Notes: generated by a model not told the origin, from the letters alone. A stretch of 50,842 nt of DNA from a bacterium (GCA_046757165.1 JBHHXT010000012.1:1-50842), one strand, 5' to 3'. Counted from the stretch's first letter, positions 13,572-36,937 are shown. A program made the numbers and translations.

Positions 13572-13799
13572 ATGAACTGTCCGTACTTTTTTGAAGCAAG
13601 ATGCAACCAGTGCCTCATTTTCAAGGGATTGTTTGTGCCGAGCATCTATGAGGAAAAGAACTACTGCAGAAACGGGAAATATCAGGAATGTGGCATATTC
13701 ACGCTCTACGCTGAGTCATCCATCAAAGTCAGCAAGGAAGAATACCGCACCCAAATCGAACGCGAGCAGTACTCGGGTCCCGCGGTAAGTTCTCATTAG
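13572..13799 (+). CDS. Small Cys-rich hypothetical protein (75 aa)
   Basis: AGGAGG SD 9 nt before ATG; five Cys (CPY...C..C...YC...C). Confidence 0.7.
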   Translation: MNCPYFFEARCNQCLIFKGLFVPSIYEEKNYCRNGKYQECGIFTLYAESSIKVSKEEYRTQIEREQYSGPAVSSH

Positions 13800-13872
13800 G
13801 CGCCACACGGGACATAGAACTTGATTCAGCCACGAATTGGCACGAATAAGATGGGTCTTGAAACGGAAAAGC

Positions 13873-13915
13873 TTTTTTCGAATTTAGAGTTTAGTTTAGG
13901 ATTTCGAATTTCCGG
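13873..13915. repeat. Dispersed intergenic repeat, copy 1
   Basis: TTTTTTCGAATTTAGAG...GGATTTCGAATTTCCGG; a near-identical copy is at 23066-23103. Confidence 0.65.
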
Positions 13916-13918
13916 ACC

Positions 13919-14470
13919 TCACTTCCCGATTTTCGCCAGAATGAGTTTCAGAGTTTGCAGCACATCTTCCTTTCGTTTTGCACAGATCGGTAGGATTGCG
14001 GCGGAGTCCTTGAGTTCCAGTACTGTTCGCACCTCCTCGGGCGATAATGCATTCGGCAGATCTTGCTTGTTTGCACAGATCTGAATGGGTACTTGATAAT
14101 ACTCCAGATAGTAGTCGAGCATCATCTTGGCATAGATGGAGTCAAGGAGGCTTGCAGCATCTAACAGAAAAATAAGTCCATCCATTTCTTCAGATAAGAT
14201 ATCCCACATAAACTCGAATCGATCTTGTCCTGGTGTTCCAAACAAATAGATTAACTTGGAATCGATCTTGACCTGCCCAAAATCCAATGCCGCAGTGGCG
14301 TTGTTCATACCGGGAGGGTCGAGGTTCGCGCGGGAGACCTCAGTTTGAACAGGTGTGACCCCGCTGGCAGTTTGAATGAACTGGGTTTTGCCTGCTGAGA
14401 CCGGTCCGGAGACCACGAATTTGATTCTTTCGGTTCTTTTGTGTGGCTGAGAATTTGTCTCTTGTTCCAT
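13919..14470 (-). CDS. Small Ras-superfamily GTPase (MglA-related, conservon CvnD-like)
   Basis: G1 GPVSAGKT, LDFG, G3-region FGTPGQDRF, G4 NKQD, G5 CAK. Confidence 0.9.
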   Translation of the reverse strand: MEQETNSQPHKRTERIKFVVSGPVSAGKTQFIQTASGVTPVQTEVSRANLDPPGMNNATAALDFGQVKIDSKLIYLFGTPGQDRFEFMWDILSEEMDGLIFLLDAASLLDSIYAKMMLDYYLEYYQVPIQICANKQDLPNALSPEEVRTVLELKDSAAILPICAKRKEDVLQTLKLILAKIGK

Positions 14471-14648
14471 AAACTGATAAGCCCTGGGTTAGATTCGACC
14501 TCATTCTCCTATCTCGATGAGGAGAGGAGTTTTATGAGATTGAGTCCTGCGAGTTATTGTGAGTCTGAAAAGACGGGATACTGAGCGGAATGCTACTTCA
14601 GCGACACCGGCATTCCTCCCTGAATCCTTTTCTACACCCTGCCGGCGC

Positions 14649-16946
14649 TTAGATTCTTTGGCTGATCTCGATTTGGATCTTGCGCAGTTCACGATCCAAA
14701 TCATGCAGGGTCTGAAATCGCTTGTTCGCCTCAGCACGAATCGCCGTCATGACAACGCTGTCCCACGCCTTATGAGGTGGATCCTCAGCCTTCTCCGTCG
14801 GCACGATATTTACTTTGAGCAAATCCTGCGGCTCGTTGATCTCGCCAGCCGTTTCATAAGGGTGGCGTCGGGCCAGAACTTCATATGCGATAATCCCGAG
14901 GGAGTAGATATCGCTGCGGATGTCGCTTCTCTTGCCCCTGAGGACTTCCGGAGCCATGTATTCCCACCCCTCTGGCATGGGTGCTTGAGCTGAGCCTGAG
15001 GTGTTTTCGAAACCGGGATGACGAAAATCTGCAATCTTCAGTCCTCTCGCCTCAGTCAACCAAATATTCCCGGGTTTCAAGTTGAGGTGCGAGACCCCCT
15101 GTGAGTGGAGGTACATCAACGCGCGCACGATCTTCAAGAGATTCGTCAGGAATTCCATCTCCCATTCTGAATCTGCATAGTCGACATCGGTGATTTTCTT
15201 TCCGTCCAGGTATTCTCTGGCATAGAAGAGGACATAATCTTGTTCACCCATGTCGAAAAGGGTCGCAATATTGGGATGGTTCATGCGGCCGACAGCACGA
15301 ATGGTCTCATAGATTTGCCCAAGCTCATCTTCATTTTGAAGGTAATGAATCGTTCGTTGAAGTGACAGGGCTCTGATGATGACTGGACGTCCAAGGCGTT
15401 TATCCATGCCTAAATAGGTAGAGTAGTTTCGGTGCTGAAGCAGGCGCTCCTTCACTTCGATCTCACCCAGGCAATAGCCGGTGTTGCCCGAAAGATGGGC
15501 AAGCGGATTGCGCCAAATAATTTCACTGCAGGCTGTCTTCTCACCAGGCAGAATATCTACTTCCTCCATGGGCATGACGCCAATTTCGTCTGTGGTGCTA
15601 CCTTCGAGTGACTTCTTGTCGCCAACGAAGAGGATGCCACCAGCAGACTGACTGCCGTCAACATGCTGCCGGGCTATTCGCAAGAGATGTGCTGAACGGA
15701 CCAAAGCCTTGAGCGTATTCCGACTGCTGCTTTTGCCTTTAGTGGTGACAAGACTGCAATGGAGCGAGACTCTGTCGCCGGGTGCAACTTTAGCATTGTA
15801 GGTCTCCAGGCTTTGCAGCAGTTTAGCGAGTGCGTTGATCTGAGGGGCAGGGTTCATGGCAAGGCCCAGAAAGCCCGTGTTTACATACCGTAACGCACTT
15901 TCCGGTACCTGAGACAGATGAGAGCTAAGGAGTTTCAGGAGCCCTTCAGGTATTTCCTCGCTGCGCTGTGATTCGATTTGAGCGAACAAATAGCATCTCC
16001 ACCCGGAGGTCAGATGCGCCTGGCTTTCTTGCCCATCTTCCGCTTTCCTGAGCCGGGCAAGGAGTTCTCCATTCAGGTTGAACTTCTTTGACTTCAGGTC
16101 GCTGCCATGTTTGGAATTGTTTTGGATTTCATTGAAGAAATCTTCAACGGCTATCTTTCCCAGAATAAACAAGAACTCGCTGTCTTCCGGGTCCTTTGAG
16201 CGGTTTGTGAAATTGTTGCGGAGGACAAGTCTCAGAGTCAAGTAATCACGCACATCTTCGATGGAGTCGAAAGATGAGAAAGAGCTTGCGCACGAGGCGA
16301 TTAACTGAGCGGTTTCAACTTTGGTGATTCTTCTGTTTTTTGAAATATGTTCGTATGCGTGGGTCAGCGCAATTTGCCGCGTGCAGAGTTCTTTGTTGTC
16401 AGGTTCCTGTATTTTCTGAAGCAGGACCCTGCTGGCCTCAGAAAACTTGCATCGCCACCACAGATCCTCCAGGTAGTCGTGCAGCGTTTGGAACGGACCA
16501 TATGCGTCCTTTGCTGCTTGCTCAGGGGCTGTTGCGTGTTTGTCTCCGGCGGCCCCGTTCTCAGTCGTGGCGGAGGGAGTGCTGCGTTGAATTTCTGTTT
16601 CCGGTGCGTTTCTTCGAGCTCGTTTACAGATTTCAGCAGCGAACTCTGTATGAACATTTTGCTGCTCGAAGAGGGCCGCCAGGCTGAAAACGAGCTGGTC
16701 GGAATCCGGGTTGGCATGGACAGCTTTTTCATAAAGACCTAGCGCCTCGTCTGAGACGTCCTTCAGGCCAATTGAGGCCATCGAGGCGCAAGAGACGACC
16801 TCCGGCACCTCCGGGGTGAGTGCCAGAAGTTGGGTGAGCTTTTCATATGCCTCAGCATATTGCTGCCTTTCTAAATAGGATTTGCCCAGGGTCAACAAAA
16901 GCTGGTGTAACCGCTCCTGGGGGGGAGTCTGGTCCGAGACGGTCAT
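14649..16946 (-). CDS. TPR + degenerate class III cyclase-like domain + Ser/Thr pseudokinase
   Basis: N-terminal TPRs. The C-terminal kinase fold has VIIR (for VAIK), HLNLKPGN (for HRDLKPxN), DFR (for DFG), YMAPE and SDIYSLG. Confidence 0.8.
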   Translation of the reverse strand: MTVSDQTPPQERLHQLLLTLGKSYLERQQYAEAYEKLTQLLALTPEVPEVVSCASMASIGLKDVSDEALGLYEKAVHANPDSDQLVFSLAALFEQQNVHTEFAAEICKRARRNAPETEIQRSTPSATTENGAAGDKHATAPEQAAKDAYGPFQTLHDYLEDLWWRCKFSEASRVLLQKIQEPDNKELCTRQIALTHAYEHISKNRRITKVETAQLIASCASSFSSFDSIEDVRDYLTLRLVLRNNFTNRSKDPEDSEFLFILGKIAVEDFFNEIQNNSKHGSDLKSKKFNLNGELLARLRKAEDGQESQAHLTSGWRCYLFAQIESQRSEEIPEGLLKLLSSHLSQVPESALRYVNTGFLGLAMNPAPQINALAKLLQSLETYNAKVAPGDRVSLHCSLVTTKGKSSSRNTLKALVRSAHLLRIARQHVDGSQSAGGILFVGDKKSLEGSTTDEIGVMPMEEVDILPGEKTACSEIIWRNPLAHLSGNTGYCLGEIEVKERLLQHRNYSTYLGMDKRLGRPVIIRALSLQRTIHYLQNEDELGQIYETIRAVGRMNHPNIATLFDMGEQDYVLFYAREYLDGKKITDVDYADSEWEMEFLTNLLKIVRALMYLHSQGVSHLNLKPGNIWLTEARGLKIADFRHPGFENTSGSAQAPMPEGWEYMAPEVLRGKRSDIRSDIYSLGIIAYEVLARRHPYETAGEINEPQDLLKVNIVPTEKAEDPPHKAWDSVVMTAIRAEANKRFQTLHDLDRELRKIQIEISQRI

Positions 16947-18802
16947 GGCGAGTTTTCTTCAGTTTTGGTTTGCTTTTCTTGCTCTGCTCGCAGCTCATTT
17001 TCCAGTATCGCTATGGCTTCGTCTTCGATATGTCCATCTCCAAGATATTTTTGCGACAGAACGGCATGGATCTGCGGGTGTATTTGTCTGGCCAGATTCA
17101 GATCGATAATCATCTTGAAGACCTTCAGAGCGCGCTCATCATTGCGTCCGAGCATCAGGTAGATATTGGCCAGGGTGGGGTAATATCTCAACCGCTCCGG
17201 GTGTCTTGCCAGCAGTCGTTCATAGATTTTTGCGGCTTTGAGATAGCTGCCCCGCAAATAGTGAATTCTGGCCCGGCTGGTCGGGGAGAAAATCACAAAT
17301 CCGAATAGCGGCAGAACGACCATGGCCACGACCGCACCGCCGATATACACGAGCGCGGTGTAGCGCTTTTGAACGGGTGCGGCGTCGGCAGATTCCGAGT
17401 TTAGTTTCAAATTCTCCCGGGCCTGAATCAGAAGATTGAGAATGTTGTGGTCTTCCGGGGCCAACAGGCGCAACTTTTCCAGCACCAGCACCGCCTGCAT
17501 CCACTCCTCTGACTTCATCATGGTCACGGCCTGGTCGTAGAGCGAATTGAAGTACTCATTGGACGGCAAGGCGCTGGCGGTGCTGGGCTTATAAGAGCGT
17601 TTTATTTGTTCCAGCAAGGTGGCGGTGTCTTTGTAATTGGGATCGAGCTTGTGGATTTTTTCGAAGGATGCCAGCGCTGTGCCCAAATCCTTGTTGTTCA
17701 TGGCGGTGATGCCGTCGAAGTAGTACTGCCTGAGAATGTTTTCGGTGTTTTCCGATTCCAGACCCCGGTGCGCCTCGCGGAGTTTGCTTTCCGCCTCGAG
17801 GTAGGCTGGCTCCAGCTCGATCACCTGTTCAAAAGCGATAATTGCCCGGGTCCAGTTTTTGTCCTGCAGGGCTGTCATGCCGATGGCGTACTCGTCTTCG
17901 ATCTGTCGCGCCGTCTGGAGTCGTTCGAATGCCTCCCTGGCTTCGGTGAGATTGGCGCGAGCGTCCTCGTAATTGGGATCGTGTTGCAGCAGAGTTTCGT
18001 AGGTACTGATGGCCATCTCCAGATTCCCGTCCCGGGCGTGCTTCTGTGCGAGTTCATACATTTCCTGCAGAAACTCTCTCTTGGCTCTGGAATTCATCAG
18101 GGAATCGATCAGCGCCAACTTCTTCTCCAAGCCAGCGTGATTGGGCTTGATGGTCTTCAACTGCTGTACCAGTGCCTGGGCCTGCATGACCTCGCCGGCA
18201 TCCAACAATTTTTGGATTTCCACATCTAATTTGTCCGCTTCGATGTCTACTCTTACAATCTTGATCAGGTTTTGAAAATAACTGCGGTTCTCTTTGAATT
18301 TCTCCTGTCCTGCCTTTAGCTCCCGCAAAGCGGCATCATATTTCCTTTGCTCGTAGAGGACGAGAGCCAGCTCAAACGTCACCTTGGAGCGCATGTCGCG
18401 GTCTTTGGCAAATTGCAGCGCATCTAGCAGCGTATTTTCGCTTTGTGTGAGCTTCTTGAGACGTTTTTGGGTCACCGCCAGGTGGTAGAGGATGCGGGTT
18501 TTGAGTTTGTTACTTTTCTCCCTTCTTTTCGCCTGGTAGGCGTTTGTGAAATAACGCTCTGCATTTCGGAAATCTCTGAGCTGCTTATAGGCCAGACCCA
18601 GATTGTAGAGTGCCTCGACAAATGTGGGGTCCAGCTCGACGGCTTTTCTGTAAAGTTCGATTTTCTTTTGCCCATCTGTCTCGGCGGTCGCGCGATTGAA
18701 TAGGTTTATCGCCTCTTGATTCGCGGACTGGGGATAGCCTGGCGCATGACTGGTGAGGTGAAACCCCAGCGCGATGCACAGTAGAAGCTTTTTTGCTTGC
18801 AC
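16943..18802 (-). CDS. Exported multi-TPR protein with one TM helix and a cytoplasmic TPR tail
   Basis: Signal peptide-like N-terminus, many TPRs (KAVELDPTFVEALYNLG), TM ALVYIGGAVVAMVVLPLFGFVIF. AAGGAG SD before GTG. Confidence 0.88.
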   Translation of the reverse strand: MQAKKLLLCIALGFHLTSHAPGYPQSANQEAINLFNRATAETDGQKKIELYRKAVELDPTFVEALYNLGLAYKQLRDFRNAERYFTNAYQAKRREKSNKLKTRILYHLAVTQKRLKKLTQSENTLLDALQFAKDRDMRSKVTFELALVLYEQRKYDAALRELKAGQEKFKENRSYFQNLIKIVRVDIEADKLDVEIQKLLDAGEVMQAQALVQQLKTIKPNHAGLEKKLALIDSLMNSRAKREFLQEMYELAQKHARDGNLEMAISTYETLLQHDPNYEDARANLTEAREAFERLQTARQIEDEYAIGMTALQDKNWTRAIIAFEQVIELEPAYLEAESKLREAHRGLESENTENILRQYYFDGITAMNNKDLGTALASFEKIHKLDPNYKDTATLLEQIKRSYKPSTASALPSNEYFNSLYDQAVTMMKSEEWMQAVLVLEKLRLLAPEDHNILNLLIQARENLKLNSESADAAPVQKRYTALVYIGGAVVAMVVLPLFGFVIFSPTSRARIHYLRGSYLKAAKIYERLLARHPERLRYYPTLANIYLMLGRNDERALKVFKMIIDLNLARQIHPQIHAVLSQKYLGDGHIEDEAIAILENELRAEQEKQTKTEENSP

Positions 18803-18838
18803 GGTTACTATCTCCTTAATGTAAGCGGTGCGGTCGAT

Positions 18839-20497
18839 CTAAAATTCAATAGCAATGGTTTCTCCGTTTTTGATCTCCATATTTAGTTTTTCTTTTAAGA
18901 CATTGTTTTTCTTGTCCACAATGCGAATGTCATAGCTTCCACTTTTGAGGTAGAATCCGCTGTCCTTGTAACGGCCGAGCGCGCCAAATGGCTGCTCGTT
19001 GATTACGATGGTAGCGTTCCTGTAAGGCGCGGCATAAAAATCACCCAGCAAATAAACAAGCGCGCTGCCGCCGTCGGTTTGATCAGATGATCTACTGGAG
19101 GGAAGCCCTTGCGAAGCTGCAGAGAGGGAATCCCTGCTCGTGCTTCTTTCGTGCCATTCAGCGACGGGCTGGAGGTAGAGATTGCGCCTCTTGTAGAGAA
19201 TTTTTTCCCTGGCGTCCGCGACCGCCCAGGTGAAATTTCCTGCATGGACCGGCATGTCGTCGCTGAACTTTTGCACGGCATCCAGGACGCGCACGCCTGT
19301 CAAGTCATTCAACATTTGCACATACTTGCCGTCGTCGATTTGCAGCAAGACGAGCTGGCCCCCGCTCTTGTAGGCGTGCTGCGGCCCGCTTCTGGAGGGC
19401 GCCTGTTGCAGGGGAATGTTCACGCGTTTGGACACCGGGCCGGACGGCGGGGCAACGTCTGCGCTGCTCTCCGGCTGGCTGGCGTAGAAGAGAACGAGCG
19501 CAAAGGCCAGGAAGAGTGCCGTGCATAAGCTCACCACACCAACTTTGTTGGACGCGAACTTCCGTGAGGCCTCCACGACCGGGTAGATCGTTTTCACTAA
19601 CCGTTCGATATATTCACTGACGTTTGACGGTTCATCGCCGATGGTAAACTCGACCTCGACTCGAGTTGTCACGTTCCATTGCCCGTTGACGTGGATGAGT
19701 CCGGCGGTGATGTTGTCGGAGCCGTCCATCATCTTCGCCCGGCTGACGAGGTTGCTGACCTTGTTTTGCAACGAACCATGATAGGCGGTCAAAATGCTGT
19801 GAATGAGCTCATTTTGCAGGGCGTTGCAAAGGCCATCTGAGCACAGCAAGTAGAGATCATCCGGTTCAACCGGAGCGATCTGCAGGTCGATCTTGACGGC
19901 TGGCGAAATGCCGAGCGCGCGCGTCAGGACATTCTTTTTCTGAAAAGTCTTCACCTCGCTTTCGCTGATCTCCTGGTCTTCCAGCAGCTCATTGAGCCAG
20001 GAGTGGTCGGTTGTCATGCATGTCAGCTCGCCATTGCGCAGCCGGTAAATCCTGCTGTCCCCAACATGAGCGACGATGATGTGGCCGTCGTGGAACATGG
20101 CGACGACAAGCGTGGTGCCCATGCCGAGCATTTTCTTGTCATGCAGCGCGTAGTTCAGGATGCGGCGATTCGCCAACCGCACACCGGCCAATAGTTTCAG
20201 GGCCGGGTTCGGCAAATCTTGCCGAATGTCGTCACAAACTTTGTCGACGTCCAGGAATTTGTTTTCAATGACAATGCTGCGAATCGTCTCATTGCCAAAG
20301 ATCAAGTCACGCACTGTTTCACAAGCAAATTTGCTCGCAAGCGCACCTTTCTGATGACCTCCCATGCCATCACAGACAACAAAAAACTTCCTGGATTGGG
20401 AGTAGTAGTACGAGTCCTCGTTTTCTTTGCGCACGCTTCCGATATCGCTTGAAGCCGCCATGCTGATCTTTTGATGGATTTGTGTCGTCGTGGACAT
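18839..20497 (-). CDS. PP2C/PPM-family Ser/Thr phosphatase with TM helix and extracytoplasmic domain
   Basis: RKENED, CDGMGGH, GTT, HVGDSR, DHS, LTRALG, CSDGL and GSDNIT all intact; TM VGVVSLCTALFLAFALVLFY. Confidence 0.93.
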   Translation of the reverse strand: MSTTTQIHQKISMAASSDIGSVRKENEDSYYYSQSRKFFVVCDGMGGHQKGALASKFACETVRDLIFGNETIRSIVIENKFLDVDKVCDDIRQDLPNPALKLLAGVRLANRRILNYALHDKKMLGMGTTLVVAMFHDGHIIVAHVGDSRIYRLRNGELTCMTTDHSWLNELLEDQEISESEVKTFQKKNVLTRALGISPAVKIDLQIAPVEPDDLYLLCSDGLCNALQNELIHSILTAYHGSLQNKVSNLVSRAKMMDGSDNITAGLIHVNGQWNVTTRVEVEFTIGDEPSNVSEYIERLVKTIYPVVEASRKFASNKVGVVSLCTALFLAFALVLFYASQPESSADVAPPSGPVSKRVNIPLQQAPSRSGPQHAYKSGGQLVLLQIDDGKYVQMLNDLTGVRVLDAVQKFSDDMPVHAGNFTWAVADAREKILYKRRNLYLQPVAEWHERSTSRDSLSAASQGLPSSRSSDQTDGGSALVYLLGDFYAAPYRNATIVINEQPFGALGRYKDSGFYLKSGSYDIRIVDKKNNVLKEKLNMEIKNGETIAIEF

Positions 20498-20585
20498 TCC
20501 GTGTGCACTTCCCCTGTTTGTTAACGGTGAAAAAACCAGGTCTAGTTGTGGAGGTTTCGCCTCATGGCCCCTGCGAAAAAGAGAT

Positions 20586-22973: not shown

Positions 22974-23065
22974 GCAACTGGTCTCCTTTGGCTTGGGTTC
23001 TGGAATCGCTTAGTCCCTGACAAGTCAATTTGTGTCATTTTTTGGCAAGACTTTTTGTAGTTCAG

Positions 23066-23103
23066 TTTTTTCGATTTTAGAGTTTTGGATTTCGAATTTC
23101 CGG
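23066..23103. repeat. Dispersed intergenic repeat, copy 2
   Basis: TTTTTTCGATTTTAGAGTTTTGGATTTCGAATTTCCGG; matches 13873-13915. Confidence 0.65.
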
Positions 23104-23118
23104 CTTGTCCGGCTTAGG

Positions 23119-25806: not shown

Positions 25807-25932
25807 ATCGTTGCCTCAACTCCTTTGATTAAACGTTCAGATGTGTGCTCCTGGCCGATGGTCGAATTTGTTTAAAAGTCTTGGGATAGAGATGAACAAG
25901 TGTATCCAACGCAGGTATCTCATTTTTAAAAA

Positions 25933-25948
25933 TGCAATTCGTATGCCA
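25933..25948 (-). promoter_or_regulatory. sigma54 -24/-12 promoter of the kinase operon
   Basis: TGGCATACGAATTGCA (GG-N10-GC), close to consensus. Confidence 0.85.
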
Positions 25949-26034
25949 GCAGCGTAACGGCATGAAAATCGAGTAATTACAGCAAAACCGGTTTTTGTTC
26001 CTGCTGTCTCAACCCACGACATTTGAAGGGTTCT

Positions 26035-26051
26035 TGTTTCCGTCTGAAACA
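26035..26051. promoter_or_regulatory. Putative enhancer (bEBP site), copy 1
   Basis: TGTTTC-CGTCT-GAAACA, 88 bp upstream of the -24 GG. A weaker TGT-N11-ACA site is at 26005-26021. Confidence 0.75.
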
Positions 26052-26229
26052 GGGGTCCTTTTGCTGCAAGCGGCGTGGCCGGTGCACCGGTGCTACAAGC
26101 CGACAACATTGTGTTTTTGGACAAGGTGTTGAAAATTCCAAAAAACAAAAACCCAATCCCCGTTTTTTGCGGGGCTTCGCCGTTTCGCCGCGCTAGGCTC
26201 CCATGTTGAGTCGCGAACTTCTCGATGTC

Positions 26230-27822
26230 TCACGAACGTTTGCGCGAGCGGTCCTGCTCAACAATTTCAATCTGAACCGGCACCGTCTTGACGTCGGACA
26301 GGTACTTATTGACTATATTTGCAGTCAAGCTATCTGCGTATTTATTCTTGCTGTGGAGGTGCTTGATCATTCGATAAACTCGCATGGCCTGTGCGTCCTG
26401 GCGATTCTCGTGATAGTAGAGCCGGGCGAGCGCCGGGTAGAGCCAGAGCCTGTGCGGATGTTTGAGAAGCATGCTTTCATAGATGGGAGCGGCCCGTTGT
26501 CTCTGGCCAAGCAAGACAAAAAGGCGCGCACGAGCCACGGGAGACACCAGAATGAACCCGAGCAGGGGGAGCAGAAGAGCGCCGGTCAGGAGGCTGCTCA
26601 CCAGAAGGGCTCTGGAGGCATTGCCAGGCTGTTCTGGGACCTCCGTTGCCCCGATAGGGTTGTCTGATCTGCTGTGGCGAAGTTGCCGTTGCGGCGATCT
26701 TGCCTGCGGGGCTACCGGTCGATCTTTGTGCCCGGTCAGGCGTGGGCGAGGGACGAGCTGTGCGGGCGGGCTGTCGAGAATAGGTTGCCGGGTGGGCGCC
26801 AAGTGCCTGACTTTTCGAGAAATAGGGCGTTCCGTTGTGACCGGGCGGGCCGGCAAGGTCTCTGCGGTAGGAGGGACGGTGGCAGCCCCCATTGCATCAG
26901 GTGGCTCGTCGTTCACGGGCAACGCTGGGGGGGTGTCGCGCGTGCCGCTCCTTTTGACTGCAACGGCGTTCTCCGGCTCGGCGGTCCCACCGTCAGCGTC
27001 CTCTGGCGGATCGTAAGCTGGCACGCTCGTCCCGGAGTCGTTTGTCTTGAATGTGCCTGTAACGCGGGTATTGGCCGGGGGAGCCTCAAAGATGTCTTGC
27101 AGAATTTCCGTTGAGCTTAACGAGTCTATCTTCTCCTGAACGTCCCGAAACCCTGGCATAACCCGGTCGATTTTTTCGTAGAGCGCTTTTGCTTGTTCCA
27201 CCTGGCCGTTGAGCTGCGCGTCCTCAGCCGCCAGGTATATTTTGTTCAGCTCGATGGCTCGCGCCGCCGCCTCCGTCAGCTGGTTGTAGAGGACCTCGTG
27301 CTCAGGCTTGACCTGCCGGCATTGCGACAGCTCGGTCATAGCGGCCTCGAATTGATTGCGCTGGTAGAGGATTTTCCCGAGCTCAAATGAGATCTCGCTT
27401 TTCAAGGCTTGCGACCGAGTGAGATTTCTTGCCCCTCTGAAGGCATCTTCACACGCCTTCATTTCATTCAGATATTGATAGGTCGAGCCTAACTCGTAGA
27501 GAATCTGCGATTTTAGTTCAGTATCGATAACAGCCAGACGAGCCGTGTACGCTCTCTTGAGATACTTTTTGGCTTGCTGGAATTGCTGCAGACCCTGATG
27601 TGCTCGTCCCAGGCTCAGCAGTGCCTCGACATACTTTGGATCGAATTCAATGGCCTTTTGCAGCGCGTTGATTCTGGCGTTCAGATTTTCCTTCCGCAAG
27701 GCGTTTCGGTACCATTTGACCGCTTCGCGGTTGTGTGATTGCGGTTTCAGTGTTGCTGGAGGACTGATGAAGATCAAGCAGAAGATGACAAGTTTTACCA
27801 ATCTCTTGTAGGGAGCCGTCAT
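26230..27822 (-). CDS. Exported TPR protein with Pro/Thr-rich linker, TM and cytoplasmic TPR tail (paralog of 16943-18802)
   Basis: PQSHNREA, KAIEFDPKYVEALLSLG and LPLLGFILVSP..RAR align with the 16943-18802 product. Start chosen at ATG 27822, which gives a signal peptide. Confidence 0.85.
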   Translation of the reverse strand: MTAPYKRLVKLVIFCLIFISPPATLKPQSHNREAVKWYRNALRKENLNARINALQKAIEFDPKYVEALLSLGRAHQGLQQFQQAKKYLKRAYTARLAVIDTELKSQILYELGSTYQYLNEMKACEDAFRGARNLTRSQALKSEISFELGKILYQRNQFEAAMTELSQCRQVKPEHEVLYNQLTEAAARAIELNKIYLAAEDAQLNGQVEQAKALYEKIDRVMPGFRDVQEKIDSLSSTEILQDIFEAPPANTRVTGTFKTNDSGTSVPAYDPPEDADGGTAEPENAVAVKRSGTRDTPPALPVNDEPPDAMGAATVPPTAETLPARPVTTERPISRKVRHLAPTRQPILDSPPAQLVPRPRLTGHKDRPVAPQARSPQRQLRHSRSDNPIGATEVPEQPGNASRALLVSSLLTGALLLPLLGFILVSPVARARLFVLLGQRQRAAPIYESMLLKHPHRLWLYPALARLYYHENRQDAQAMRVYRMIKHLHSKNKYADSLTANIVNKYLSDVKTVPVQIEIVEQDRSRKRS

Positions 27823-27928
27823 TGCGGTTCGGTGGTCGTTTACAAGGTTAAGAATCGTCTCCGGTGTTAAAGTCGTTCTTTGCCGGGTTATCTCCAAGAC
27901 AGCATGTTGAGGATGGCAAGTGTCGGTT

Positions 27929-27944
27929 TACAAATACTGTACCA
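27929..27944 (-). promoter_or_regulatory. sigma54-type promoter (variant -12 TTGT)
   Basis: TGGTACAGTATTTGTA(AACC), nearly identical to the promoter at 29342. Confidence 0.7.
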
Positions 27945-28029
27945 AAAGGACAAGATCTCACCGTCGAGCAGAACTGAACCTGATGAGCATCTGACGTGAA
28001 CGGACTTGAGCGCTTGTATCTCACTTTTT

Positions 28030-28046
28030 TGTTTCATGCTGAAACA
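28030..28046. promoter_or_regulatory. Putative enhancer (bEBP site), copy 2
   Basis: TGTTTC-ATGCT-GAAACA, 87 bp upstream of the GG at 27943. Confidence 0.75.
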
Positions 28047-28220
28047 GCGATGACGTTTTTGTGAGCAAAGAAGATTCAGGAGTTTTTTTTTACGCAGATA
28101 AGTGCATTTAGCCTTAGATTAAGATTTTAGATTGTGGCTCATGTACTCAAATAAAACACGTCATCTTTTGGTTCAAATGCGTCCAGTTTCCTGATGTTTG
28201 CACAGAAGAAGGGGAAAGTT

Positions 28221-29210
28221 ATGGTGCATCTGTTGTTGGCTTTCACGCTTTTGCTCTCCGCACGCGGGTGGGAAGAAGCCTCTGCCCGGTACTCGGGCAA
28301 TCCGAAAGAAAAGAAGTATAAGGAAAAATGTTGGTCGAAGAATAATGAGCGTACTTTGCTGGGACTGATGGAAAGGGTCATCCAGAAACCGATGGAGACG
28401 GTTTACCGGAATGACAATTATATCCAAACCTTTGGCTGCGCTTACGAAGATGACGACATCGAGCAAAACTCGTTTCGGGCCGTGTTCCGCGCCATCGACC
28501 AGTCGCTGCGAAATCGTCGCATTACGGCTCGTGACAACGTGATTGGGTTGTTGCGCTCGCGCCCCCCTCGCCCGGATAATCTGGCGAGGGAATATACGCT
28601 ATACGTCAATCTTGTGAAGAATTCCAAGGTGCAACAGGCCAGATATGAAGTGAAAATACTGGATCTGAAGGTCGTGCCCACGTTCGAATCGCGCCGGTCT
28701 GTTTGGACGCGAGTCATCACGCGCTACGCCTATCAGGAGGATTTCAAGAATGCGCCTACGCCCATCGACACGCCCTCTGAGTTTGTCAACATCATGCAAC
28801 TGGCAGAAGAGATTCTGGAGGCGGCAGGCAAAGGGAAGTTCAAGAAAGTGAATGAGTTGATTTCTGGCACAAAGAAGCCCACTTTTCATCCTACGGACCT
28901 TCGGGAGTTGGTCTTTGGAGATTATCTTCGTCTTTTTTCAGAAAAGCAGCCTGTGATTGGGGAGGTCCCCGCTATATACATCGGCAAAGGAATCTACATT
29001 GCCAAAATCCCGAAGTTTGGATCGACCATCCTGAAATTTGGTGAGGAGCATTTGTTTGGTTTGCGACTGGATACGAGCTCGTTTCACAGAAATAGCAGCT
29101 TGTTCGCAAATATTCAATACAGGGCTCCCGAGTCGGTGTTGCAGTGCTTGCTTTTGCGGTTTGGCCACAAAAAACCTTTGCATCTTCCTGATTTGACTTC
29201 AGTCAACTGA
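28221..29210 (+). CDS. Hypothetical exported protein
   Basis: Long ORF. ATG 28221 follows AAGGGG and gives a hydrophobic N-terminus (MVHLLLAFTLLLSA). No family recognised. Confidence 0.7.
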   Translation: MVHLLLAFTLLLSARGWEEASARYSGNPKEKKYKEKCWSKNNERTLLGLMERVIQKPMETVYRNDNYIQTFGCAYEDDDIEQNSFRAVFRAIDQSLRNRRITARDNVIGLLRSRPPRPDNLAREYTLYVNLVKNSKVQQARYEVKILDLKVVPTFESRRSVWTRVITRYAYQEDFKNAPTPIDTPSEFVNIMQLAEEILEAAGKGKFKKVNELISGTKKPTFHPTDLRELVFGDYLRLFSEKQPVIGEVPAIYIGKGIYIAKIPKFGSTILKFGEEHLFGLRLDTSSFHRNSSLFANIQYRAPESVLQCLLLRFGHKKPLHLPDLTSVN

Positions 29211-29240
29211 GTAGTTAAAAAAAGGCGGCGTTAGAGCAAG

Positions 29241-29257
29241 TGTTTCATAACGAGACA
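29241..29257. promoter_or_regulatory. Putative enhancer (bEBP site), copy 3
   Basis: TGTTTC-ATAAC-GAGACA, 86 bp upstream of the GG at 29343. Confidence 0.75.
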
Positions 29258-29341
29258 TGGGTTCCATCGGTCAGGCAAGCGACGGCGCTCTAACTTCAAA
29301 TTAATTAACCGAATAAACTGAAGAATGCCTGCCGCCTACGC

Positions 29342-29357
29342 TGGCACAGTATTTGTG
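29342..29357 (+). promoter_or_regulatory. sigma54-type promoter (variant -12 TTGT)
   Basis: TGGCACAGTATTTGTG(AACC). Confidence 0.72.
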
Positions 29358-29513
29358 AACCAAATGGCTTATTTTGTACCTGCACTCCGAATTCCGATTC
29401 TTGCCGGGAGGTGAGATGTCGTATTGACCCGGGCTCTTGCTCAGGCTGGACAAGAGGGGACGTCCGGGGGCCGGTGGCTATTGGTGCCCGGGCTAACCTG
29501 AATCAGAGGACTG

Positions 29514-30494
29514 ATGAGGAAGAGAACACAGATAAGAAAGTTTGTGATTGGCAAAGGATCGCCGAGTACCCTCCATGGTTTATCAAAAGCAAAATACAGA
29601 AAGAACCTTGAAGCGTCTCTGGTTATCAGCCTGATGGTGAGTCTTCTGTTCTTTCGTTTCACCACCCACATTGATATTGAAAAGTATTTGATCGAAGAGG
29701 AAAGCATCACGCTGGAGTTTCTGGACCTCCAGGATCTGCCTCCGGTCACTGAGCAAACGCAGCAGCTCAAGATGGAGCAAGTCGTTGAAGTCGAGCCTGA
29801 AGAATCAGAAACCGTTGGCGAGGGCGGCGAAATCCAGGAGATCATCGACGAAATCGAGGAGCTGCTGGCTGAAGACGAAGAAACGCAATTGGCGCTGGCA
29901 AACGACGATATGGGTCATCTCATCTCAGATTCCCCCCTGGACCTGGGAAGGCACTCCCAACTCGACATTCGAAAAAGCCTGGCCAGCAATGACGGCGGGA
30001 TCAAATTCCGCCGCGGCAAGGGCGCTCTGGCAAAATCTTCAAGCAGCCTGGATATCGGCACCTCACGAGCCGCTCCCAGGGAGGTTGGTGCCGACCAGGC
30101 CAACCTTGACCTTCAGCTCGCGAAGGAGAAGCCGCAGAAACCCAAGAAGAAAAAATATCGCGAGAAACAGCCGACCTTAGGTCTATCCGGTGCGCCGGAA
30201 AGAGTCCTGTCGTTTGCCTCATCTACATTTGGCACCGAAGGTTATAAGCTATGGAATAAAATCATCTCTGAGCTCGACCGCTTGAACAAAGGAAGATACG
30301 GGACGGTAGTACAAGAAATAAAACGGCATAAGAAAGGATTCGTCGTACAGTTTAGTTATGATGACAAAACCCACCAGGAAGTCCACTGGCGGAATGATGG
30401 CAACGTCTGGATTACGGTGATCGGCAAAAGCAACAAATCGACGATTCAGGAATTGCGCCGAGCATTGCATGGACTACTCAGGTTATCACTTTGA
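29514..30494 (+). CDS. Membrane-anchored protein with a TonB-like N-terminus and an unrecognised C-terminal domain
   Basis: KAKYRKNLEASLVISL TM anchor followed by an acidic linker, reminiscent of FCB-group TonB N-termini. No clear TonB_C domain. GAGGA SD. Confidence 0.7.
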   Translation: MRKRTQIRKFVIGKGSPSTLHGLSKAKYRKNLEASLVISLMVSLLFFRFTTHIDIEKYLIEEESITLEFLDLQDLPPVTEQTQQLKMEQVVEVEPEESETVGEGGEIQEIIDEIEELLAEDEETQLALANDDMGHLISDSPLDLGRHSQLDIRKSLASNDGGIKFRRGKGALAKSSSSLDIGTSRAAPREVGADQANLDLQLAKEKPQKPKKKKYREKQPTLGLSGAPERVLSFASSTFGTEGYKLWNKIISELDRLNKGRYGTVVQEIKRHKKGFVVQFSYDDKTHQEVHWRNDGNVWITVIGKSNKSTIQELRRALHGLLRLSL

Positions 30495-30511
30495 AGTTGA
30501 GGAGTGCAAAG

Positions 30512-31957
30512 ATGAAGAGACGGTCTCAGATACTTTTCTTCCTTTTTCTGTTAGGGGGTGTCGCCGTGGCTTCGGGTCAGCCCGTGAGTGTACTGTATGA
30601 CGATATTCAGCAAATGTACAAAAGTGGGGATTATCAGCGCACCGTTGATTTGTGCCAGCAGATTCTCACCCGTTGTGCCGAGAGTGTTCCGGATGTGGAA
30701 TGCCGCTTCACGGATGTGATGAAAAGTGTTTACCGCTTGAAAGGGTTTGCGGAGTATCAGCTCTACCTCAAGGATCGGCAGTTAGTGACTCTGGATGCCG
30801 CGATTCTGTCGTTGAAGAAGAGCTATGGATTGTTTGGCGATCCAGAAATTGCCTTCAACTTTGGCTACATGGAGTCGCTGCGCGCCATCGAGCTCAGGGA
30901 TGGAGCATATCTGGATGGGCTGGTGCACGCCTGGCAGGGCGTCCTGGGGTTGTATGCAAAGAACGATTGGAACGTATCTCAAGAACTTGTGGACAAGATC
31001 AGAATCTTCATCAACCAGGCCGTGGACATCACCATCACCCCGCCAGACAGTGCGCTGACCAACGGTCTGTTTACGAGCTTTATGGTGCGGCTGGCCTGTG
31101 ATCTGGCGGAAAAAGGCGGTTTAGGCAGGCAGGACAGCTTGTTCTTTCGGGTCTACCGGCAGCGCGCTGTGGAGGATGAGTTCAATTTGCGCGGCAACGA
31201 ATGGCGTGCGCGTGGGTTTTCCGCTCAGAAAGATCTGAACAACTATCCGGATGATTACAACTACCGCGAAACACGCCGCTATCTGGAGCTGGCCTACAAG
31301 CACGCAAAAAGCACGCAGCGCCAGGCCGAGATGCTCAAAGAGCTGACCAAGGTTGCCCTGTTCATGGAGAAAGAGGGGATCAACAGCCAGCCTGAGGCGG
31401 AACTACAATACGCTCGCGAGAAAGCGCAGCAAGCGTACGTTTTGCTTGTCGACCGGGGCTCCGACATCAGCTTGTCGCTGGCCAGTGAGATCAAGAGAGT
31501 CTATGGCAACTCGATTTTCCGCCTGGTAAACTACTATTTCAGTTTTGCAGATTCCACCAACCGTCTAAACGCCTACGCCCGTGCCAAACGAGTTGGCGAG
31601 CAGCTCCTGGTGCCGGATGGTCGCTTTGGCCGCAAACAAAAGTTCGTGTGGGACGGCTACGAAGATCTCTATTTGCGGCTCTCAGAAATCGGATATGAAA
31701 TCGGCGACAAGGTATTCGCAGTCGATATGGTCGATAAGGCCTGGAAGTCCGCCCTTGAAGCAAATGGCCTGACCCAGAACGACCTCTGTGGTCAACTGGA
31801 GTTTCAAAAGGCGGCCGAACTCCTGCCGTTTGCCCGCGTTTACCGCCAAATCGCCGAACGGTTTGGCTTACAACCGGTGCTGCATTGGCTCCGACCGATC
31901 ATAAAATGTATCGCAGACAATGCTCGGTCCTTCCCAACAACAAGAAAAGGTGCCTAG
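30512..31957 (+). CDS. Hypothetical exported alpha-helical (TPR-like) protein
   Basis: GAGGA SD, signal peptide MKRRSQILFFLFLLGGVAVA, helical repeat-like segments. Confidence 0.78.
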   Translation: MKRRSQILFFLFLLGGVAVASGQPVSVLYDDIQQMYKSGDYQRTVDLCQQILTRCAESVPDVECRFTDVMKSVYRLKGFAEYQLYLKDRQLVTLDAAILSLKKSYGLFGDPEIAFNFGYMESLRAIELRDGAYLDGLVHAWQGVLGLYAKNDWNVSQELVDKIRIFINQAVDITITPPDSALTNGLFTSFMVRLACDLAEKGGLGRQDSLFFRVYRQRAVEDEFNLRGNEWRARGFSAQKDLNNYPDDYNYRETRRYLELAYKHAKSTQRQAEMLKELTKVALFMEKEGINSQPEAELQYAREKAQQAYVLLVDRGSDISLSLASEIKRVYGNSIFRLVNYYFSFADSTNRLNAYARAKRVGEQLLVPDGRFGRKQKFVWDGYEDLYLRLSEIGYEIGDKVFAVDMVDKAWKSALEANGLTQNDLCGQLEFQKAAELLPFARVYRQIAERFGLQPVLHWLRPIIKCIADNARSFPTTRKGA

Positions 31958-32530
31958 TTGAAAGTATCGCTTCTATTGTTCGTCTTATCTGCAACCTGGG
32001 GGACGCCTGGCGAGTCCAATTCGCAACATATCGATATGAAACTCGAAGAGCAGATGGTTGCTCTCGAGCGCGATGTGGTTCGAATCTACAATGAATTGCA
32101 GAAGTTTCTCTATGTCGATGATCGCCGCGGCAATGAGCTGTTGGCGTTCGAGTCACTGATCACAATCTATGTAGACGAAATATTGAATCTCTATGACACG
32201 TTTTGGCGCATCAAAGGCACCACACTCGAGAATCAGCAAAACATCGCTGCGCGCTGCCTGATTTTTCGAGCCCTGACCTACCTGGAACGGGTGGCCGAGG
32301 ACAAAGGAAACTATGCCAGGGCGTGCGAGGATTACAAGAAGGCCTTGCATCTGGCTCGCAACGAGCTGAAGGAGCCGTTGCTGAATACAAGGCTGCCACA
32401 TGAAGTCTGGGTTGGCAGGAAACTGTATACCCGTCTGGCCGACCTTCTGGATAACCGAAGCAAGAATTTTCAGATGATCGATTGTTTTAGAATTTCTGAC
32501 GAAATCTCGACAAATGGAGACGGTAGATGA
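31958..32530 (+). CDS. Hypothetical exported protein (paralog of the N-terminal domain of the next gene)
   Basis: TTG start abutting the previous stop; signal peptide-like N-terminus; aligns with the 32527-33840 product. Confidence 0.8.
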   Translation: MKVSLLLFVLSATWGTPGESNSQHIDMKLEEQMVALERDVVRIYNELQKFLYVDDRRGNELLAFESLITIYVDEILNLYDTFWRIKGTTLENQQNIAARCLIFRALTYLERVAEDKGNYARACEDYKKALHLARNELKEPLLNTRLPHEVWVGRKLYTRLADLLDNRSKNFQMIDCFRISDEISTNGDGR

Positions 32531-33840
32531 AAGCGGTCGTGCGTTTTCTCCAGATAGCGTTGTTCTGTGCGTGCTGGACTCTCACCGGGTTTGCGCAAAA
32601 CAGTCAACGCTCGCTCGTCAAACGAATGAGTCAGCATGAAAACAATATTCTCTATATGTACCTCGAGTACCAGAAGCTCTACTACGAGGACAAGTCGAGA
32701 GAGCACGAGCTGAGAGCTTTTGAAGATTTGTTAACGGTTTACATCGACCAGGTGACGGAGATATATGAAACGCTTACGCTTTCAGAACGCAAGACCGAAT
32801 TACCGCGCGAGATCGCTTCCAGAACTCTGGTTTTCAAAGCGTTGATGTATCTCGAGAAAGCACCTCTGAACTATGAGTACTATGAGCGCGCCTGTTATGA
32901 ATACTACAAGTCCCTGAACCTGTACGATGGTACCGATGAAGCCCCGGTGATTTTTAAGGATTTGCCGCAGCAGATTCAGGCAGGGGATAAGACCTACTAT
33001 CGCTTGAAGGACTTGCTAGATGACAAGGGCAAAGGGTTGCGTGATTTCGGCAAGGTGAAACTTTCCTTTCGAAATTTCATGGTCACAGCGAATTTTGATC
33101 CTGAAATGTTGGAGTTGATCACGGTAGAGAGCGGGGTCTCTTCTGCTGCAGCGCCCCATGTTTCCAACAAGGAATACACATTCAACCTGGCTGAAACCAT
33201 CATAAAATACGCTTTCGCAGAAGTGTTTCAAAGCAGACGCGAAGTGGAGACGTACGTGGCACTGCCGGCCGGTACCTATGTTTTGCGATTGCACGGTGGC
33301 AGAAAGTCAGGGTTTACGGCATTGACTCGCTTCTATGTCCAGGCCAACCAGGAGCAACACTATGTCATGGAGCCGCTGGCAGATTGGATTATCCTTTATG
33401 AGAACCCGACCAGCAGACGGCCGGATTACTACCACTACCGCAGAAACAAGAATCTTCTGGCCTCAGATGGCCTGGGCGGCAGCTTTGGTCTGCAGACCAA
33501 CGGTGACGTTGAAGAGAAAGTCAGCGGCAGCGCAGATGGGGAGAGCGCAACCACGGCCAATCACGAAACGCTCGTGGCCGAGATCGTCGCCGACATGTTG
33601 CCGAACTACGAAATCAGGATGATGTTCGAGCTCAACGATCCTGAAATCAAAGATAACGCCATCCAGATCATTGCCAGGTCGATCGTTCACTACGTTGAGA
33701 GCCAGGCGTTTTATAACAAGTGGAATCTCTGGTCTGCGAGCTGGGAGATTTCAACGGAAGTACGGGACGTCATCAGCCCGGGGAGTTTGGTGCCCATCGA
33801 GTTGTTGGAGCTCGTCTACAACGTCATCAAGGAAATGTAA
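32527..33840 (+). CDS. Hypothetical exported protein
   Basis: ATGA overlap, signal peptide ending GFA-Q, duplicated N-terminal domain, beta-rich middle (LPAGTYVL). Confidence 0.82.
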   Translation: MKAVVRFLQIALFCACWTLTGFAQNSQRSLVKRMSQHENNILYMYLEYQKLYYEDKSREHELRAFEDLLTVYIDQVTEIYETLTLSERKTELPREIASRTLVFKALMYLEKAPLNYEYYERACYEYYKSLNLYDGTDEAPVIFKDLPQQIQAGDKTYYRLKDLLDDKGKGLRDFGKVKLSFRNFMVTANFDPEMLELITVESGVSSAAAPHVSNKEYTFNLAETIIKYAFAEVFQSRREVETYVALPAGTYVLRLHGGRKSGFTALTRFYVQANQEQHYVMEPLADWIILYENPTSRRPDYYHYRRNKNLLASDGLGGSFGLQTNGDVEEKVSGSADGESATTANHETLVAEIVADMLPNYEIRMMFELNDPEIKDNAIQIIARSIVHYVESQAFYNKWNLWSASWEISTEVRDVISPGSLVPIELLELVYNVIKEM

Positions 33841-33969
33841 CTCCTGCAAACCACTTATCCGAATTCGACTTCTTTACTTACTTCCTGTTTGACAGAAATG
33901 AGAGCAACTTCAGAGAAGTTCATTTTTTGCTTGCTTCTTTGCCATTATTTCTTTAAGATTGTGGCATCT

Positions 33970-36894: not shown

Positions 36895-36937
36895 ACTCAC
36901 CCTTTCGCAGCTCATGCTCAGGCCGATAGGAGGGGCC

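Follow-up and report, generated by a model that had tools for sequence, protein, structure and literature searches.

The window, that is, the whole stretch of DNA analysed here, is contig C12 (GCA_046757165.1 JBHHXT010000012.1:1-50842; 50,842 nucleotides) of a bacterial genome of 6.09 Mb, which is assembled in 531 contigs and is 99.98% complete. Protein labels among its relatives are candidate division KSB1, Calditrichaeota and Zhuqueibacterota. Positions 13919-33840 hold twelve open reading frames (ORFs), seven co-oriented on the minus strand (g01 to g07) and five on the plus strand (u338, u326, u488, u190 and u437), flanked by aromatic amino-acid genes on the left and by pgk on the right. 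An earlier note on this DNA had described a minus-strand run and a plus-strand arm in this interval, and the coordinates match. The minus-strand genes encode a signalling cassette built around a Hanks-type kinase (hereafter the arm), and the plus-strand genes form a five-gene operon (hereafter the module).

For protein families, ORFs of at least 145 aa in the window were scanned, and domains were searched with Pfam, NCBIfam and PADLOC. Topology calls are based on hydropathy and on N-termini read by eye, with no dedicated signal-peptide prediction. The phyletic sample consists of 151 genomes of the phylum, in which G000 is the source genome.

The arm centres on g06 (23119..25806, minus strand), a receptor Ser/Thr kinase of 895 aa with a transmembrane (TM) helix at residues 452-470. 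Its kinase domain matches Pfam Pkinase with E = 6e-44 (150.8 bits against a cut-off of 31.7), and in the kinase-domain alignment all the motifs are kept (the RGGFGI Gly loop, the VAIK Lys, HKD and DFG). Judged by these residues, g06 is an active-type Hanks Ser/Thr kinase. The extracellular part matches only PEGA (four stretches) and CarboxypepD_reg in Pfam, and no PASTA repeats are found on it. The next gene, g05 (20586..22973, minus strand; 795 aa), encodes two FHA domains (Pfam, E = 2e-34), a TM helix (294-312), an FG-GAP propeller (four FG-GAP_3 matches) and a second TM helix (771-789). This FHA-FG-GAP architecture is found in approximately 33 close clusters, all with KSB1-type labels of metagenome-assembled genomes, and below these there are generic FG-GAP proteins only. 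The third, g04 (18839..20497, minus strand; 552 aa), is a membrane PP2C with a TM helix at 319-337 and a periplasmic tail of 215 aa, for which Pfam gives no match; its residues 17-268 pass the equivalog threshold of NF033484 (Stp1_PP2C; 231.3 bits against 230). The writer, reader and eraser that had been proposed for this locus are therefore all present, namely the PEGA receptor kinase, the FHA-FHA membrane protein with its propeller, and the membrane phosphatase. Hydropathy suggests a cytoplasmic position for the kinase, FHA and PP2C domains, with the PEGA stretches, the propeller and the PP2C tail outside the membrane.

Two further genes of the arm encode TPR membrane proteins, both with Pfam TPR matches, which are paralogous (24-27% identity), as had been proposed. 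One of them, g03 (16943..18802, minus strand; 619 aa), has a signal-like N-terminus, a TM helix at 487-505 and TPRs on both sides of it, and its stop overlaps the start of g02 by 4 nt. The other, g07 (26230..27897, minus strand; 555 aa), has a signal-like N-terminus and a late TM helix, likewise with TPRs on either side. A terminator-like hairpin (26174-26158) lies just 3' of its stop, and g07 is probably a transcription unit of its own. It is present in G004, G005, G010, G013 and G027 and was not found in G008, G009, G015 and G022.

The product of g02 (14649..16946, minus strand; 765 aa) is a cytoplasmic protein, with no TM segment by hydropathy, which consists of N-terminal TPRs, a middle region and a C-terminal pseudokinase domain (Pfam TPR and Pkinase; E = 1e-28 and 100.9 bits for the latter). 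The catalytic loop reads H-L-N in place of H-R-D, the Gly-rich loop is lost, and the VAIK Lys is replaced by Arg. Because H-x-N and the loss of the Gly-rich loop and of the DFG-Gly are common to g02, to four orthologues (G004, G008, G022 and G027) and to both paralogues on contig C3 of the same genome, g02 is regarded as a conserved pseudokinase. The protein had earlier been taken for a degenerate TPR-cyclase-kinase. The degenerate kinase stands, and the cyclase was not found: residues 120-510 match no Pfam domain even at E ≤ 5, and a match to TIGR03903 is confined to the kinase part.

The last gene of the minus-strand run, g01 (13919..14470, minus strand), encodes a small GTPase of 183 aa, distantly MglA-like, which passes TIGR00231 with 44.7 bits (cut-off 42.5). 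Its best solved relative is the Thermus MglA (3t12; E = 1.1e-10, nearly full length), followed by Arf-like proteins (E = 2e-8). No orthologue was found in any of 40 relatives (best other match E = 1.4e-6, 23% identity), and g01 is absent from all eight other orthologous arms that were mapped. The identification as a small GTPase holds, and membership in the system does not; from its distribution, g01 is a strain-specific addition that lies outside the conserved cassette. The only Roadblock/MglB-like (Robl_LC7) match of the genome is on contig C4, beside a second small-GTPase match (C4:36459-36845 and C4:37194-37442), and this pair is probably the canonical mglA-mglB.

The five genes of the module are u338 (28194..29210), u326 (29514..30494), u488 (30491..31957), u190 (31958..32530) and u437 (32527..33840), all on the plus strand, and starts and stops overlap or abut at the last three junctions (u326/u488, u488/u190 and u190/u437). 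Hydropathy and the N-termini indicate that u326 has a single N-terminal TM helix, and that the other four have signal-peptide-like N-termini. Apart from a weak TPR_2 match on u190 (E = 0.009), none of the five has a match in Pfam, NCBIfam or PADLOC, in agreement with the earlier description of four exported proteins without a family, and none matches any described system.

The most conserved protein of the locus is u488, which is exported and all-helical. Its predicted structure (pLDDT 89.9) has structural matches to TPR proteins only (8dtf_A, Z 18.7 over 312 aligned residues; 4a1s_A, Z 15.2 over 313), with 42 Foldseek matches at E ≤ 0.001, and no Pfam TPR model matches it. As modelled, the fold of u488 is a TPR superhelix. 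The N-terminal part of u437 (~170 residues) is paralogous to the exported helical protein u190, which is 35% identical to u437 residues 5-180; the u190-like N-domain of u437 is followed by a middle and a C-terminal region without a recognised fold. Profile searches of the PDB with u326 and u437 gave chance-level rows only, the u437 and u488 profiles aligned in their signal peptides alone, and an Atlas search with u338 and u437 yielded nothing above 0.83 and no usable family.

The exported protein u338 is modelled with two domains (pLDDT 86.5). The N-domain is FlgT-N/Lpp20-like: its nearest match is the flagellar LPHT ring chain 8z5n_5 (Z 7.8, root-mean-square deviation (rmsd) 2.8, 84 aligned), and Lpp20/RcsF-like folds are also matched. 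The C-domain (~187-298) resembles more than 20 NlpC/P60 or CHAP chains with middling Z values (4.2-6.8, ~90-113 aligned). Its Foldseek matches have E values of 0.01 or weaker, and PF00877 gives no match. No His is invariant among 30 sequences of the u338 family, whose invariant Cys residues (37, 73 and 309) fall outside the helix-strand core. In a weak hhalign register the catalytic His of the genome's own NlpC/P60 enzymes faces Pro/Ala in u338. Since catalytic residues are missing and Pro/Ala stands opposite the His, the C-domain is read as a dead NlpC/P60-like domain, and peptidoglycan binding may therefore be supposed; the model hints that u338 binds the wall. Two points count against this assignment, namely that the likeness is carried by the middling structural scores, and that hhalign of u338 with two NlpC/P60 proteins of the genome gives a probability of 3% (E = 0.014).

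The anchor of the module is u326, a bitopic inner-membrane protein composed of a cytoplasmic tail of 31 residues, a TM helix (32-50), an acidic and then Lys-rich linker, and a conserved C-terminal domain of ~100 aa. Residues 1-31 (29514-29606) are the sole cytoplasmic segment of the module and have the consensus RRFVLGK.S..T..G, in which Thr19 is present in 9 of 12 aligned orthologues. This segment is deleted in G027, a genome in which arm and module are unlinked. The protein had been called TonB-like, which is right for the layout and not for the family: TonB_C (PF03544) has no match in u326 at E ≤ 5, a genome-wide six-frame search with PF03544 gave nine matches (eight above the cut-off) with none on C12, and no ExbB/ExbD/TolQR-type gene is found among the window ORFs scanned.

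A complex was predicted by folding together mature u488, mature u338 and residues 222-326 of u326, the last being the scored partner. The ipSAE values of this segment are 0.75, 0.75 and 0.76, against 0.00 for the best control. The corresponding mark is reached by 116 of 157 solved complexes and by 2 of 215 mismatched pairs, and is only a rough guide here, the prediction having its own alignments and three chains. Agreement between the runs is at least 81% of contacts, the partner pLDDT is at least 73, and every confident contact joins u326 residues 233-326 to u488 residues 239-472. Because the control in which u338 was kept and u488 replaced gave 0.00, there is no support for binding of u326 to u338. 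The interface on u326 is enriched in conserved columns (13/30 vs 16/75 in the rest of the domain); that predicted on u488, as a point on the other side, is no more conserved than the remainder (11/36 vs 161/422). The modelling supports docking of the u326 C-domain in the concave groove of the u488 superhelix.

The module is coherent across the phylum. Its five genes are syntenic in all 15 other mapped loci, which come from four families (among them G004, G005, G008, G009, G010, G011, G013, G015, G022, G027, G035 and G040), some of these maps ending at a contig end, and u488 and u338 share one set of 35 genomes among the 151. By family, the module is present in 13 of 17 genomes of f1, 1 of 1 of f3, 10 of 10 of f8, 6 of 12 of f6, 2 of 5 of f12 and 2 of 2 of f14. 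The other 19 families searched have none, save two near-threshold matches to u338 (E ~3e-4) in f16 and f17. In f6, u338 is relocated to the far end of the operon and there is an extra N-terminal half-copy of u488. Such an extra gene, just upstream of u488 and 32-39% identical to its N-terminal half, is seen in f6 and f12 (G040:C13:50116-50760, G035:C18:47609-48127 and others). Among 1.84 billion representatives only 22 proteins match the u338 profile at E ≤ 0.001, and a search with P0218, a protein of this family, gave one weak match of 29% in a Spirochaetia record. The plus-strand genes are a coherent five-gene operon restricted to KSB1.

Sequence identity of the locus tracks kinship, relatives of the same family reaching 80-91% and those of other families 55-62%; for u488 it is 80-91% across genera of the family. 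In the same genomes (G008, G009 and G011), u488 is 82-87% identical, compared with 69-70% for pgk. A constraint above that on pgk is unusual for a lineage-restricted protein without an assigned function. As u488 is more conserved than a glycolytic enzyme, the complex of the five proteins would therefore have an important role. Most likely the five proteins assemble into a periplasmic scaffold that is tethered to the inner membrane.

The cassette, on the other hand, is not single. Whole-genome tblastn, together with Pfam on contig C3, shows it to be one of three or four paralogous copies in the genome. The gene order of the arm is TPR membrane protein, PEGA receptor kinase, FHA-FHA-TM-FG-GAP protein, membrane PP2C, TPR membrane protein and TPR-pseudokinase. 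This order recurs in two cassettes on C3. A first cassette there runs from 45.5-48.1 kb down to 38.4 kb with kinase-PEGA, FHA-FG-GAP, PP2C, short TPR and TPR-pseudokinase genes, and a second from 26.4 kb down to 17.1 kb with kinase-PEGA, FHA-FG-GAP, TPR and TPR-pseudokinase genes. Between them are pilin-like genes, a T2SSF gene, two T2SSE ATPase genes and a PilN-SPOR gene, and Wza- and Wzz-type genes come after the cassettes and the pilus-like set. The region C3 ~17116-48118 (L025, L026) is a co-oriented supercluster of ~31 kb, in which the cassettes bracket the type IV pilus-like set. All 17 queried genes of these cassettes and the pilus cluster are syntenic in another genus (G011:C37), and a query with the flanking Wza gene gave no match in G011. 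A further, partial cassette is on C315, and C17 has a paralogue of g02. Because two sister cassettes stand on either side of the type IV pilus-like genes, the cassettes appear to be dedicated to the regulation of envelope assemblies.

Whether the arm serves the module may be judged from how the two are inherited. The arm was scored by g05, an orthologue being called where g05 matched from residue 1 with at least 45% identity, which is an identity threshold uncorrected for kinship; for comparison, g05 is 32-38% identical to its own paralogues in G000. The arm lies divergently beside u338 in nine of the nine genomes of two families (f1 and f3) of one order in which a full-length g05 orthologue was mapped (G000, G004, G005, G008, G009, G010, G013, G015 and G022), and this adjacency holds with or without g07 between the two units. 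Besides G000, g05 is matched from residue 1 in 17 genomes of the sample (45-72% identity) and, in two pieces, in G081; each of these 18 carries u488. In the f1 genomes without the module (G003, G014, G016 and G018), g05 has matches of 36-39% only, which is the paralogue level.

These data, with those on the folds, are best accommodated if two KSB1-specific units stand back to back, a periplasmic scaffold operon and one paralogous Hanks-type cassette that probably targets it. We give this reading a probability of about 45%. The functional coupling of arm and module, taken by itself, is plausible though unproven, and we would infer it at roughly even odds.

A number of observations weigh against this reading. 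Module and arm orthologue are on different contigs in all ten f8 genomes (for G027, 40-kb maps were checked). In six f1 genomes (G001, G002, G006, G011, G012 and G020) the module is kept and g05 has matches of only 34-36%, again at the paralogue level, two of the six being 74-76% complete. The best g05 match of G011 is the orthologue of a C3 paralogue, and the module of that genome is flanked by housekeeping genes. The g05 matches in f6, f12 and f14 (36-38%) are indistinguishable from paralogues, and in f10 partial g05-like matches are found in 14 of 14 genomes, with the module in none of the 14, of which G101 and G148 are flagged as unpublished. Moreover, kinship among the genomes makes them non-independent, and no more than a few events may lie behind the nested pattern. 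Such observations favour a view in which the units are neighbours without a working link, the cassette, like its paralogues, regulating a general process (such as envelope growth, pili or polysaccharide export) and the module being an independent periplasmic complex. The unlinked state in f8, the f1 modules without an arm orthologue and the housekeeping surroundings in G011 all fit this view, as do the multiple copies of the cassette, the others of which sit with pilus and Wza/Wzz genes. Less easily reconciled with it are the divergent adjacency in nine genomes of two families, retained despite gain or loss of g07 between the units, and the arm orthologue never being found without the module (18/18). 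Mere neighbourhood of this kind is a serious if somewhat doubtful explanation.

The intergenic DNA bears on the same question. Three intergenic stretches of the locus contain a palindrome of 17 bp, TGTTTC-N5-GAAACA. One site precedes the g06 start by 229 nt (TGTTTCCGTCTGAAACA, 26035..26051), a second is in the divergent region between g07 and u338 (TGTTTCATGCTGAAACA, 28030..28046), and a third, with one mismatch, is between u338 and u326 (29241..29257). The whole genome has 4 exact copies (0.26 expected) and 26 with at most one mismatch (9.9 expected), so that three of the 26 sites of 6.09 Mb fall within one stretch of 3.2 kb, which speaks for a link between the units. The palindrome is probably an operator for a regulator. 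It recurs, with at most one mismatch per half-site, in the divergent region of G004, G005, G008 and G015, and other copies precede g06 in G005 and the module in G040. To the points against coupling must be added that the equivalent regions of G009, G010, G013, G022, G011 and G027 lack it, among them four of the nine linked loci. Two exact copies outside the locus, at C32:15727 and C185:1312, are near unrelated genes.

The earlier note had proposed that both arms share one promoter architecture. The palindrome, present on both sides, sustains part of this; a dispersed repeat of ~75 nt ending in GGATTTCGAATTTCCGG does not. This repeat lies at 13860-13918 (past the g01 stop) and 23045-23118 (between g06 and g05), the 17-mer core starting at 13899 and 23087. 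The core occurs in the genome in 35 exact copies and 67 with at most one mismatch, and because of these 67 occurrences the repeat is not locus-specific. As a locus-specific promoter element it was ruled out on these counts, and it looks like a REP (repetitive extragenic palindromic) or MITE (miniature inverted-repeat transposable element) sequence. Matches of the sigma-70 type are at the shuffled expectation (12 vs 12.0) and terminator-like ones are below it (17 vs 24.9); KSB1 may have promoter types other than the sigma-70 type.

If the cassette does target the module, a possible scheme can be outlined. The kinase g06 would sense the periplasmic state via its PEGA domains and phosphorylate itself, the pseudokinase scaffold or a target at threonine residues. 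These phospho-marks would be read by g05 through its FHA domains and relayed across the membrane by its propeller, and the PP2C g04 would reset the phosphorylation state. On the other side, u326 would anchor the module, with its C-domain docked in the u488 groove, and u190 and the N-domain of u437 would act as paralogous helical adaptors. In this KSB1 order the target would probably be the neighbouring module, and the entry point the 31-residue tail of u326 with its conserved Thr19. The phospho-target of the kinase arm is here a matter of inference. The full version of this scheme, in which each of the duplicated KSB1 cassettes is wired to a different envelope assembly and the present copy acts on the module by phosphorylation of the anchor Thr19 read by FHA, appears rather unlikely as a whole. 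The module would in this version be a novel periplasmic machine, in which a TolA/TonB-like anchor holds the TPR superhelix and a dead NlpC/P60 subunit binds the wall.

A broader proposal was that all twelve genes constitute a trans-envelope system for contact or surface sensing, in which an MglA-like GTPase and a TonB-like transducer drive an apparatus. In its favour are the MglA kinship of g01, the TonB/TolA-like layout of u326 (N-terminal TM helix, acidic and then basic spacer, small C-domain), and the lack of a match between the plus-strand proteins and any known machine. Against it, g01 is missing from all the relatives and other arms noted above, and the sole Roadblock/MglB-like gene is on C4 beside another small-GTPase match. 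The u326 protein has no TonB_C, with no ExbB/ExbD-type gene among the window ORFs scanned, and no outer-membrane protein is recognised among the twelve. The proposal is improbable. As to its parts, no outer-membrane component that would make the system trans-envelope was identified, and no finding speaks to contact or surface sensing. Nor are the twelve genes one conserved system, in view of the distribution of g01, the unlinked units in the ten f8 genomes and the multi-copy cassette. Scattering of the genes in related genomes, which the earlier note had named among the refuting findings, is seen in f8 (different contigs in 10/10), and the genes stay together in 9/9 genomes of one order. The earlier observation is largely right, and the twelve-gene TonB-/MglA-like trans-envelope reading of it is too broad.

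Horizontal acquisition of the locus as a mobile anti-phage or conflict island is very improbable. In favour of it, kinase domains match PADLOC kinase models (e.g. PD-T4-6 and mad6), the G+C content is somewhat lower (0.49-0.55 vs 0.55-0.59 in the left flank), and 2 kb downstream there is a gene for a restriction enzyme. Against it, the housekeeping genes that border the locus here (DAHP synthase and pgk) also border it in G008, and in part in G009, G010 and G015. Identity follows kinship, u488 is under stronger constraint than pgk, and the PADLOC matches span only generic kinase/PP2C domains (none on the five plus-strand proteins, g05, g03 or g07), on which ground the defence reading was rejected.

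Several neighbouring features may be recorded. An ORF of 75 aa rich in Cys (13572-13799, plus strand) lies inside the 449-nt gap from the DAHP synthase gene to g01. Directly 3' of the module is an ORF of 145 aa (33889-34326, plus strand) with a sub-threshold PilZ-like match (PF07238, E = 0.0021; 18.8 bits, cut-off 22.5; positions 1-99 of the 102 in the profile). By eye it has the motifs R-K-H-P-R and N-L-S-L-G-G, similar to RxxxR and NxSxxG, which we take to be the PilZ motifs. Its orthologues trail the module in G008, G009, G013 and G015, and none was seen in the mapped stretches of G004, G010 and G011. Approximately 400 nt downstream of the pgk stop is a gene for an NgoMIV-type restriction endonuclease (36100-36894, plus strand; Pfam E = 6e-95), which is overlapped by an ORF of 315 aa without a Pfam match (36842-37789, plus strand).

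Among known systems, the cassette may be compared first with the threonine-phosphorylation pathway of the Pseudomonas aeruginosa H1 type VI secretion system (H1-T6SS), in which the kinase PpkA, the PP2C PppA and Fha1 gate an envelope nanomachine post-translationally. As in the cassette, the gene for a Hanks-type membrane receptor kinase stands together with those for a PP2C and an FHA protein. The cassette differs in that its FHA protein is membrane-bound with a periplasmic FG-GAP propeller, in having in addition two TPR membrane proteins and a TPR-pseudokinase, and in its own number of three to four copies. The FHA region of g05 reaches 65 bits with TIGR03354 (TagH; cut-off 120), and no T6SS family is found among the window ORFs scanned. 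The only VipB/TssC (T6SS sheath) match of the genome is far from the locus (C99:2437-3345, 467 bits). Similarly, GltG of the Agl-Glt system matches only the FHA region (NF033760, 46 bits vs 650), so that the absence of T6SS and Glt core genes remarked on earlier is upheld.

The actinobacterial pknB locus is a second relative in design. It unites PknA/PknB, PstP, FhaA/FhaB, RodA and PbpA in one operon tied to cell-wall physiology, and common to it and the cassette are FHA proteins, a receptor kinase and a membrane PP2C whose tail is extracellular. Apart from that of Stp1_PP2C, the NCBIfam scores stay below the cut-offs, with 84.8 bits for FhaB_Rv0019c (cut-off 125) and 242 bits for PknB_PASTA_kin NF033483 (cut-off 450). 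Unlike that locus, g06 carries PEGA rather than PASTA, and neither rodA nor pbpA is found among the window ORFs scanned.

The archaellum network of Sulfolobus acidocaldarius, as far as it is set out in the accessible parts of two sources (PMC5300886 and a 2026 bioRxiv preprint), comprises the FHA protein ArnA, ArnB, the kinases ArnC/ArnD and PP2A. There, too, the control of a type IV filament falls to Hanks-type kinases together with a phosphatase and an FHA protein, and the C3 cassettes flank such a machine. From those same parts, the network is archaeal, with soluble regulators and without a pseudokinase, TPR membrane protein or propeller; furthermore, the C12 cassette adjoins the five-gene module and not a filament cluster. 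In the core of the type VII secretion system T7SSb of Bacillus subtilis, according to the accessible part of PMC9600267, the membrane pseudokinase YukC/EssB and the FHA domains of YukB/EssC occur together, and there the conserved pseudokinase and the FHA domains are components of a membrane assembly instead of enzymes. In contrast, g02 has no TM helix and has N-terminal TPRs, an active-type kinase and a phosphatase are present beside it, and there are no T7SS genes.

For the module, the likenesses are in layout only. With TonB/TolA, u326 shares one N-terminal TM helix, a long charged spacer and a small conserved C-domain, and it differs in the missing TonB_C and in its predicted partner, which is a TPR groove and not a TonB box. 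NlpI-MepS (8xup and 8xud) is likewise a periplasmic TPR protein encoded with an NlpC/P60-fold protein, and the MepS chain 8xud_I is among the best matches to the u338 C-domain (Z 6.8, rmsd 3.4, 113 aligned). In contrast, the u338 family has neither an invariant His nor an invariant Cys in the C-domain, and the prediction does not support binding of u326 to u338. The five-gene module is without a known counterpart.

In the portions of the literature that were available, no paper describing the cassette or the module was found. The available text of the Zhuqueibacterota paper (PMC11683472) contains none of pilus, motility, secretion or flagell-, and uses 'kinase' for metabolic enzymes only. That of a preprint on an atlas of bacterial Ser/Thr kinases does not mention PEGA, FG-GAP or KSB1, and its supplements may list related families. 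If the coupling is real, it would provide a bacterial case of duplicated Hanks-kinase/FHA/PP2C/pseudokinase cassettes, with a separate envelope assembly assigned to each. The FHA reader in them would be membrane-spanning itself, a layout not mentioned in the available parts of that literature, and a five-protein periplasmic complex restricted to one candidate phylum would be defined. The predicted contact of u326 with u488 and the single cytoplasmic tail offer concrete and cheap biochemical tests that require no cultivation.

Taken together, the comparisons place the cassette near the known kinase/PP2C/FHA triads, like which it works, yet it belongs to none of them. Its own traits are the transmembrane FHA-propeller protein, the paired TPR membrane proteins, the pseudokinase with N-terminal TPRs and the multi-copy state.

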